Shown here: positions 56,488 to 56,889 of the stretch, piece after piece
How the letters are laid out: each line of letters starts with the position of its first letter
Numbering within the stretch: the first letter of the stretch is position 1
DNA from: Eledone cirrhosa
Lineage: Eukaryota
Direction of reading: 5' to 3'
DNA length: 64,000 bases
Assembly: GCA_964016885.1 (NCBI GenBank)
Contig: OZ024762.1
Coordinates: forward strand, 14,880,001-14,944,000
Translations under genes and position numbers: made by a program
The notes under the pieces: model-generated
Told to the model about the DNA's origin: nothing
Seen by the model: the letters and a program-made list of their open reading frames with translations, nothing else
The model's database searches: none

Positions 56488-56547
<60 letters not shown>

Positions 56548-56600
56548 ATATAGAAAAGGCTGCTACAGGACTAGAACTATTTCATTCGGAGAAATCATCA

Positions 56601-56712
56601 GATAAGAGGGAACGAAGGAAATGTTGAAATTCTTGGTGTAACTGGGAATTAAATCTGAATCTGTGAAAGTCGTCGAAAATGCATGCGTTGATGCATTGGT
56701 GGTGGTTTTGGT
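56601..56712 (-). other. Antisense copy of part of coding exon 2 (48092-48197), captured between inverted family-E arms
   Basis: The reverse complement matches 48092-48197 except for one substitution and one 6-nt insertion. Confidence 0.9.
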
Positions 56713-56850
56713 CTGTTAGTTAATGTTTCCAGATGATTTCTCCCGAACGAAACGGTCCTAGTCCTGTAGAAGCCTTTTCTATATTAAATATTTATACTCT
56801 GCTTTGTATTGAGTACCTTACTTACTTTGGGTTACCCCCGATTTAACCTG

Positions 56851-56889
<39 letters not shown>

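Follow-up and report, generated by a model that had tools for sequence, protein, structure and literature searches.

How did a stretch of coding sequence come to lie, in reverse orientation, in an intron of the gene it belongs to, and does it act there on the RNA of that gene? The question is raised by a fold-back element in Eledone cirrhosa, within the 64,000-nt stretch of contig OZ024762.1 that was analysed here (the window), where two arms of a family E element enclose an antisense copy of part of an upstream exon. The host gene encodes a P-loop NTPase with TPR repeats and is the ortholog of Argonauta hians LOC115232051 (62.5% identity over 611 columns). All seven of its exons in the window have AG/GT ends (exon 1 a donor only) and an open frame without a stop, and exon 1 is joined to exon 2 without the intron in a spliced contig of 2,846 nt (run X1). 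The insert is contained in intron 4 (54615-57717) of this gene, and the copy is therefore antisense within the same pre-mRNA. The features discussed are the following.

47021-47176, 47968-48984, 52491-52647, 54467-54614, 57718-57827, 59494-59607 and 61970-62113, plus strand: exons 1-7 of the host gene, with further exons past the end of the window
48092-48197, plus strand: source of filler piece 1, within coding exon 2 (47968-48984), covering the predicted Walker B (ACIFDDF)
56494-56544, no strand assigned: (TA)n target, left flank
56544-56601, minus strand: left arm of family E, short and inverted; the hammerhead-like core is intact, and filler stands in place of the 5' strand of helix I
56601-56712, minus strand: filler piece 1, antisense to the pre-mRNA, copied from exon 2 (48092-48197) and overlapping the left arm by 1 nt
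56709-56728, minus strand: filler piece 2, copy of intron 7 62153-62172, 19 of 20 positions identical, oriented as piece 1
56725-56852, plus strand: right arm of family E, the long one; its hammerhead-like motif (56725-56773) has A in place of U4 in the core
56853-56887, no strand assigned: (TA)n target, right flank
62153-62172, plus strand: source of filler piece 2, 40 nt inside intron 7

The exon-copy insert is real. Local alignment of the reverse complement of 56601-56712 with 48092-48197 showed one substitution (TTC in the exon, TTT in the copy, at 48138) and one 6-nt insertion that turns HRFNS into HRFRFNS, and BLAST within the window matched the piece to exon 2 with an E value of 8e-47, bearing out the preliminary description of the stretch as a reverse complement of the exon. 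That description had named the substitution and a 6-nt duplication as the only differences; both are present, but the duplication is imperfect, giving two C-to-T changes on the exon strand, both within 10 nt. The assignment of the copied stretch to Walker B was made from the motif plus weak AAA_22 matches. When the genome was searched with the 112-nt piece, two matches were obtained from two candidates, the insert and the exon, as a lower bound.

The second piece at the apex, the intron 7 copy, is an addition to what had been described before. Its source is the sole match with up to two mismatches on both strands of 1.064 Mb. Pieces 1 and 2 share a 4-nt microhomology, TGGT (56709-56712), and the homology is 1 nt at the left arm joint and 2-4 nt at the right arm joint. 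The source of piece 1 lies 8.4 kb upstream of the insert (8,404 nt, or 3,078 nt after removal of introns 2 and 3) and that of piece 2 lies 5.4 kb downstream; the apex is thus a mosaic of two templates copied from opposite sides of the insertion.

Members of family E are short, carry a hammerhead-like motif at the 5' end and lie in (TA)n tracts as two arms meeting head-to-head; 33 such junctions were present in 1.064 Mb (36 rows minus three spurious pairings). The left and right arms of this insert are 94.9% and 92.8% identical, respectively, to the nearest fetched family E copies and, between 56544-56599 and 56732-56788, 89.5% complementary to each other, in agreement with the earlier placement of the copy between inverted family E arms. 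Among 63 distinct copies of the motif, which were chosen by likeness to it so that the counts lean toward the motif, the core letters CUGANGA / GAAA / UH are kept in 50-63, the helix III pairs in 60-62 and the helix II pairs in 56-61, and one helix I pair switches between C-G (18 copies) and A-U (9 copies). Helix II has 3 bp and a variable loop, the position of the canonical G10.1-C11.1 pair of the hammerhead is U-U in 58 of the 63 copies, and a search of 40000-64000 for Rfam hammerheads produced no match to family E up to an E value of 1. U4 is changed to A, as in the right arm, in 6 of the 63. Judged from its letters, the motif of this copy is likely inactive, because the sense arm has A for U4 and half of helix I is missing from the other arm.

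Longer family E copies (n = 20) share a common upstream sequence of ~250-300 nt with stop-interrupted frames, which presumably resemble a GIY-YIG end. None of these 20 copies reaches an intact ORF, and membership among the Penelope-like elements therefore rests on architecture; the layout is that of such elements, which would make family E either a pLTR stub of an EN+ PLE or a non-autonomous derivative. The conserved core and helices I-III of the type I hammerhead ribozymes in PLE pLTRs are described in PMC4209133. An E subfamily at several loci (L130, L132, L133, L142, L143 and L145, around 1501-1650) runs from its 3' end through a short tail back into the 5' start, resembling a circular or tandem unit of ~180 nt, and other copies extend into different upstream sequence. 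At further loci (L104, L105, L110-L112, L115 and L116), a tandem hammerhead unit of 310 nt shares this core start, is arranged head-to-head and is near-identical from locus to locus.

The differences between copy and exon had been taken in the preliminary description as a hint that the template was another allele, a paralog or an ancestral state, and the last two of these fail. The nearest paralogs of the host gene are 29% identical and the genome search yielded only the insert and the exon, on which grounds a paralog template was rejected. The Argonauta ortholog has five residues where the copy has seven, i.e. no duplication, so that the duplication in the copy is derived; since the copy also carries this species' own codons, an ancestral-state template was rejected as well. 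Between the exon and the contig of a related organism there are six differences in the copied stretch, and at each of them the copy has the letter of this species, indicating that the capture took place later than the species split and that this locus was used. At 48172-48173, both the relative and Argonauta have Leu where this species has the derived Gln, and the copy has Gln. Derivation of the exon from the element was also rejected, as the exon region aligns with the Argonauta ortholog. The template may have been another allele of this locus.

Variation at the source gene was seen at two further positions. At 48152, one same-species contig has G (depth 3, possibly an error), as in the related organism, and the insert has the reference letter; at 49013, two runs of one same-species sample have A, the letter common to the related organism. 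The distant paralogs lie at C21:15712060-15741102 (two in tandem) and C24:23377852-23378754, with 27-29% identity over the NTPase exon.

The capture of local host sequence at a fold-back apex, as first described for this insert, recurs genome-wide. Across 16 families, the 1.064 Mb surrounding the window gave 233 junction calls (some double-counted), of which 168 have microsatellite on both flanks and 55 have at least 16 nt between the arms; among these 55, a single-copy host source was found for this insert only. Apparent further captures in the same 1.064 Mb proved on inspection to be nested elements, self fold-backs or upstream sequence belonging to the element itself, about eight short ones being left unassigned; the 56-nt apex at 52905-53123, for example, was rejected as upstream sequence of the element. 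Genome-wide patterns gave 536 sites with 50-200 nt, from which 15 loci were examined, and another pattern gave 31 per strand, while two tight patterns gave 12 and 3 sites with few foreign fillers. Across these genome-wide sets, too, long apices consist mostly of upstream element sequence or of junction ends copied repeatedly. One locus with a 50-200 nt match (L109) was rejected as a different high-copy element. Flush junctions with a filler of 20-150 nt comprise 73 distinct listed sites, counted by hand from 90 strand rows, and about 50 of them were recognised by eye as repeated copies of the junction ends, in which the last 10-25 nt of the arms are stuttered in direct and inverted order, a pattern known from end-joining scars. 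Clear local copies occupy 6 of these 73 sites. With the same subfamily having 0-21 nt at the junction at about 2,845 sites genome-wide, clear local capture amounts to at least 6 in about 2,900 junctions of that subfamily.

Ten foreign fillers, picked by eye with several shorter, weak ones left out and with four foreign-looking flush sites not among them, were compared with their own surroundings and with a control of 9 other loci and 35 tiles of 30 kb. Seven of the ten scored higher within their own +/-15 kb than in the control, and the remaining three had no specific local source. The seven local fillers are listed by contig, with length, identity to the source and distance of the source.

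C5: 66 nt, 100%, +0.3 kb; two copies in the genome
C10: 40 nt, 100%, -2.6 kb; also a dispersed repeat
C14: 35 nt, 100%, +1.0 kb; copied twice
C22: 23 nt, 100%, -0.7 kb
C8: 64 nt, 97%, +0.4 kb; partly low-complexity
C3: 29 nt, 97%, +1.2 kb; partly low-complexity
C1: 47 nt, 83%, -1.4 kb

These sources are 0.3-2.6 kb away and fall into all four side/strand classes. The insert in intron 4, with its 106-nt tract from 8.4 kb, is the longest and most distant filler seen in this class of locally templated fillers at Penelope-type junctions. With regard to the proposed genome-wide check for host exon fragments at fold-back apices, local captures recur, and the other captured fillers showed no exon or strand preference. 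None of the captured fillers crosses a splice junction, and no live exon was found among the four other filler sources whose reading frames were inspected. The 66-nt source on C5 was considered as a second exon case and rejected, its frames having stops and Pfam giving nothing credible. At C1697:10534-10635, the filler of an E junction is the 3' part of fold-back family F, possibly a case of two RNAs written into one break.

Head-to-head arms in (TA)n, two local filler pieces joined by short microhomologies, and similar local fillers at other junctions of the family are directly shown. On this evidence we lean towards reading the exon copy as filler copied from local templates at the joint between the two arms of a Penelope-type insertion, likely made while cDNA ends were joined and likely without an evolved function. 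A Penelope enzyme would cut both strands of the TA tract and both ends would be extended on element RNA; the free 3' ends of the cDNA, having no useful homology, would then be primed on nearby exposed DNA by a repair-type polymerase, through polymerase-theta-like end joining or a related template switch. The polymerase would have slipped once, producing the 6-nt duplication, and switched template at TGGT before the gap was closed. In vitro, a Penelope enzyme cleaves and extends both strands (PMC11167929), which would leave two cDNA ends to join. As reported elsewhere, cDNA ends of R2 prime extra synthesis on cDNA or nearby target DNA (PMC11371274), L1 insertions can carry templated genomic DNA (PMC11702581), and templated insertions of local sequence are produced iteratively by polymerase theta (PMC7165422). 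Within 10 kb of the insert, 11% of the DNA is exonic, and an antisense exon hit is therefore a chance draw that needs no selection. The fillers share with polymerase theta products the copying of flanking DNA, the short microhomology and the frequent iteration; however, single polymerase theta tracts are rarely >10 bp with a source close to the break according to PMC7165422, and 106 nt from 8.4 kb exceeds the range given there.

The preferred reading, filler synthesis at the joining of cDNA ends, is weakened further by the finding that both pieces are antisense to one transcript and that the left homology is 1 nt, which fits a reverse transcriptase working on nascent RNA equally well. The three tested fillers without a specific local source also count against it, as do the weaker cases among the seven positives (two partly low-complexity, one a dispersed repeat, one with 83% identity). 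The element's reverse transcriptase might have switched from the element RNA, at its 5' end, to nascent host pre-mRNA, copying exon 2 and then intron 7, with the filler as a cDNA by-product. This course of events, somewhat unlikely in our estimate, ranks next because of the unusual length and distance of the tract and because both pieces, antisense to a single transcript, continue the left cDNA in one direction. The two close errors and the slip, the 1-nt junction homology and the transcription of the host gene, evident from the spliced contig, also agree with it, and a second multi-piece filler likewise has co-oriented pieces. Twin-primed L1 insertions whose middle piece comes from a switch of the reverse transcriptase (PMC11702581) and mRNA/L1 chimeras (PMC13174262) have been described. 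A jump onto RNA does not account as readily for the other fillers, which come from all four side/strand classes and in some cases from microsatellite flanks ~100-130 nt past the insertion end; no filler crosses a splice junction, and most long fillers are iterated junction ends. Alternatively, the fold-back could have formed first and its apex broken later as a hairpin or cruciform, to be repaired with local filler independently of retrotransposition. The arms, 89.5% alike against a median of 94.9% over 21 pairs (3 of 21 at or below 90%), and the filler, with three substitutions in ~126 nt and hence possibly younger than the arms, point that way. We nevertheless regard late breakage as decidedly improbable: three substitutions against about 6 expected at 5% do not make a significant difference, and young copies with near-identical arms already have perfect local fillers flush to the usual 5' end. 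An assembly chimera, for which the difficulty of assembling fold-backs in TA tracts could be invoked, is hardly credible, the copy differing from its source at three places, the second piece coming from another site, and fillers of this class being seen on several contigs. Among the contigs of runs X1, X2, X3 and X5 (depth 3-6 in X2 and X3), the insert had no separate contig over 48065-48206, a result that at such depth and from contigs alone bears neither on its presence nor on its polymorphism.

Editing-complementary sequences of the GluA2 type are intronic and pair with an exon of the same pre-mRNA, and long perfect duplexes generally are edited unselectively. The insert had been put forward as a built-in ADAR editing guide on the ground that an antisense copy in a downstream intron can pair with its exon. 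The pairing itself stands up as a prediction, the duplex of exon 2 and the copy having a computed energy of -189 kcal/mol, a gain of -105 over the local folds at 37 C, and the family E arms would hold the copy in a loop. Of 32 adenosines in 48092-48197, 23 would recode if edited, including those of both predicted Walker B aspartates (D to G). Between copy and exon there is no sign of pairing-preserving evolution, as all three changes in the copy weaken the duplex, by two C-A mismatches with the A on the intron side and one 6-nt bulge, and the copy postdates the split from the relative. In the spliced contig, exon 2 has no differing letter, a result for the majority sequence of one contig whose donor may lack the insert; the 1,428 nt past exon 2 fit the remaining coding exons, leaving no room for intron 4.

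The predicted RNA duplex is possible but would be rare, and any editing would therefore be low-level and unselective. For inverted Alus in human, the editability reported in PMC4066801 decays on a scale of about 800 nt; applied at 3.1 kb this decay leaves about 0.06%, although the curve includes competition between copies, to which this unique segment is not subject. Low-level editing of exon 2 is kept in consideration because coleoid editing is extensive in both coding sequence and repeats (PMC9068888), and we rate its occurrence as roughly a one-in-four prospect. That the insert is now a selected editing-complementary sequence which recodes or re-splices exon 2 is very improbable. The orientation is correct, the pre-mRNA is the same, the predicted duplex is strong, and coleoids edit extensively, as PMC9068888 reports; against this, the spliced contig has normal length and no majority edit, the distance is 8.4 kb (3.1 kb without introns 2-3), the changes break pairing, the insert arose after the split from a relative that differs by about 6% in exon 2, and editing is predicted to hit both Walker B aspartates. 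The proposal of a built-in guide is thus left without positive evidence, given the absence of exon 2 differences in the majority sequence, the distance and the pairing-weakening changes, and the insert is likely a by-product of insertion sealing rather than an evolved RNA-editing guide.

Several known systems resemble the insert in part. EN+ Penelope-like elements with an inverted, 5'-truncated pLTR, as described in PMC8557442 and PMC3846280, likewise have head-to-head arms, a TA-microsatellite target, a hammerhead-like motif and microhomology joints, and the same reports describe captured host DNA between pLTRs in Adineta; here, in contrast, the host DNA lies at the inverted joint and its source is traced within a few kb. 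In R2 (PMC11371274) and L1 (PMC11702581, PMC13174262), cDNA ends are also extended on cDNA, nearby DNA or a second RNA before joining, but these are non-LTR elements described mostly from cultured human cells, whereas here two cDNA ends of a Penelope-type element meet and the copies are thousands in the germ line. The polymerase theta insertions of PMC7165422 are similar as iterated short copies of break ends, direct or inverted, with 0-4 nt of microhomology, and differ in scale, the tracts here being 40-106 nt and the sources 0.3-8.4 kb away, beyond the typical range. Compared with GluA2-type editing-complementary sequences and inverted-Alu editing (PMC4066801), the likeness lies in an intronic sequence complementary to an exon of the same pre-mRNA; unlike these, the insert is young, near-perfect, 106 bp long and 8.4 kb away, with no majority edit seen and no sign of conservation. 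For retrozymes, see the preprint 10.64898/2026.07.22.740005.

In the open-licence literature, supplements aside, we found no earlier report of locally sourced fillers at Penelope junctions or of an antisense-filler route to recoding. The completion of a Penelope insertion after extension of both strands involves steps that PMC11167929 calls not yet validated, and the junction fillers are a large natural record of that step, pointing to end-joining-type synthesis on templates up to several kb away. The fillers also indicate a way in which a transposon can leave a gene with an antisense copy of one of its own exons. Editing of such copies, should it occur, would explain the origin of some recoding sites, with this locus as a test case; otherwise the insert is a neutral scar. 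A broader proposal, which we consider quite unlikely, is that Penelope-type insertions of coleoids routinely write short copies of neighbouring DNA into the apex, where a hairpin loop displays them, and that some of these, including this one, create coding ADAR sites. If true, hundreds of thousands of junctions would be a standing mutational source of cis-antisense exon copies and a concrete route for the birth of new cephalopod recoding sites.

The host gene carries other repeats in addition to this insert. Five more fold-back elements, of other families, lie in it at 49459-49642, 52274-52412 (80 nt upstream of exon 3), 55968-56201, 56887-56986 and 60880-61448, and their local hairpins would be closer and likelier ADAR substrates than the exon duplex. 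Intron 2 contains a near-exact tandem duplication of ~590 nt at 50820-51900. Elsewhere in the genome, at C23:15188090-15288281, about a dozen units of ~9-11 kb form a tandem array with fold-back elements inside.
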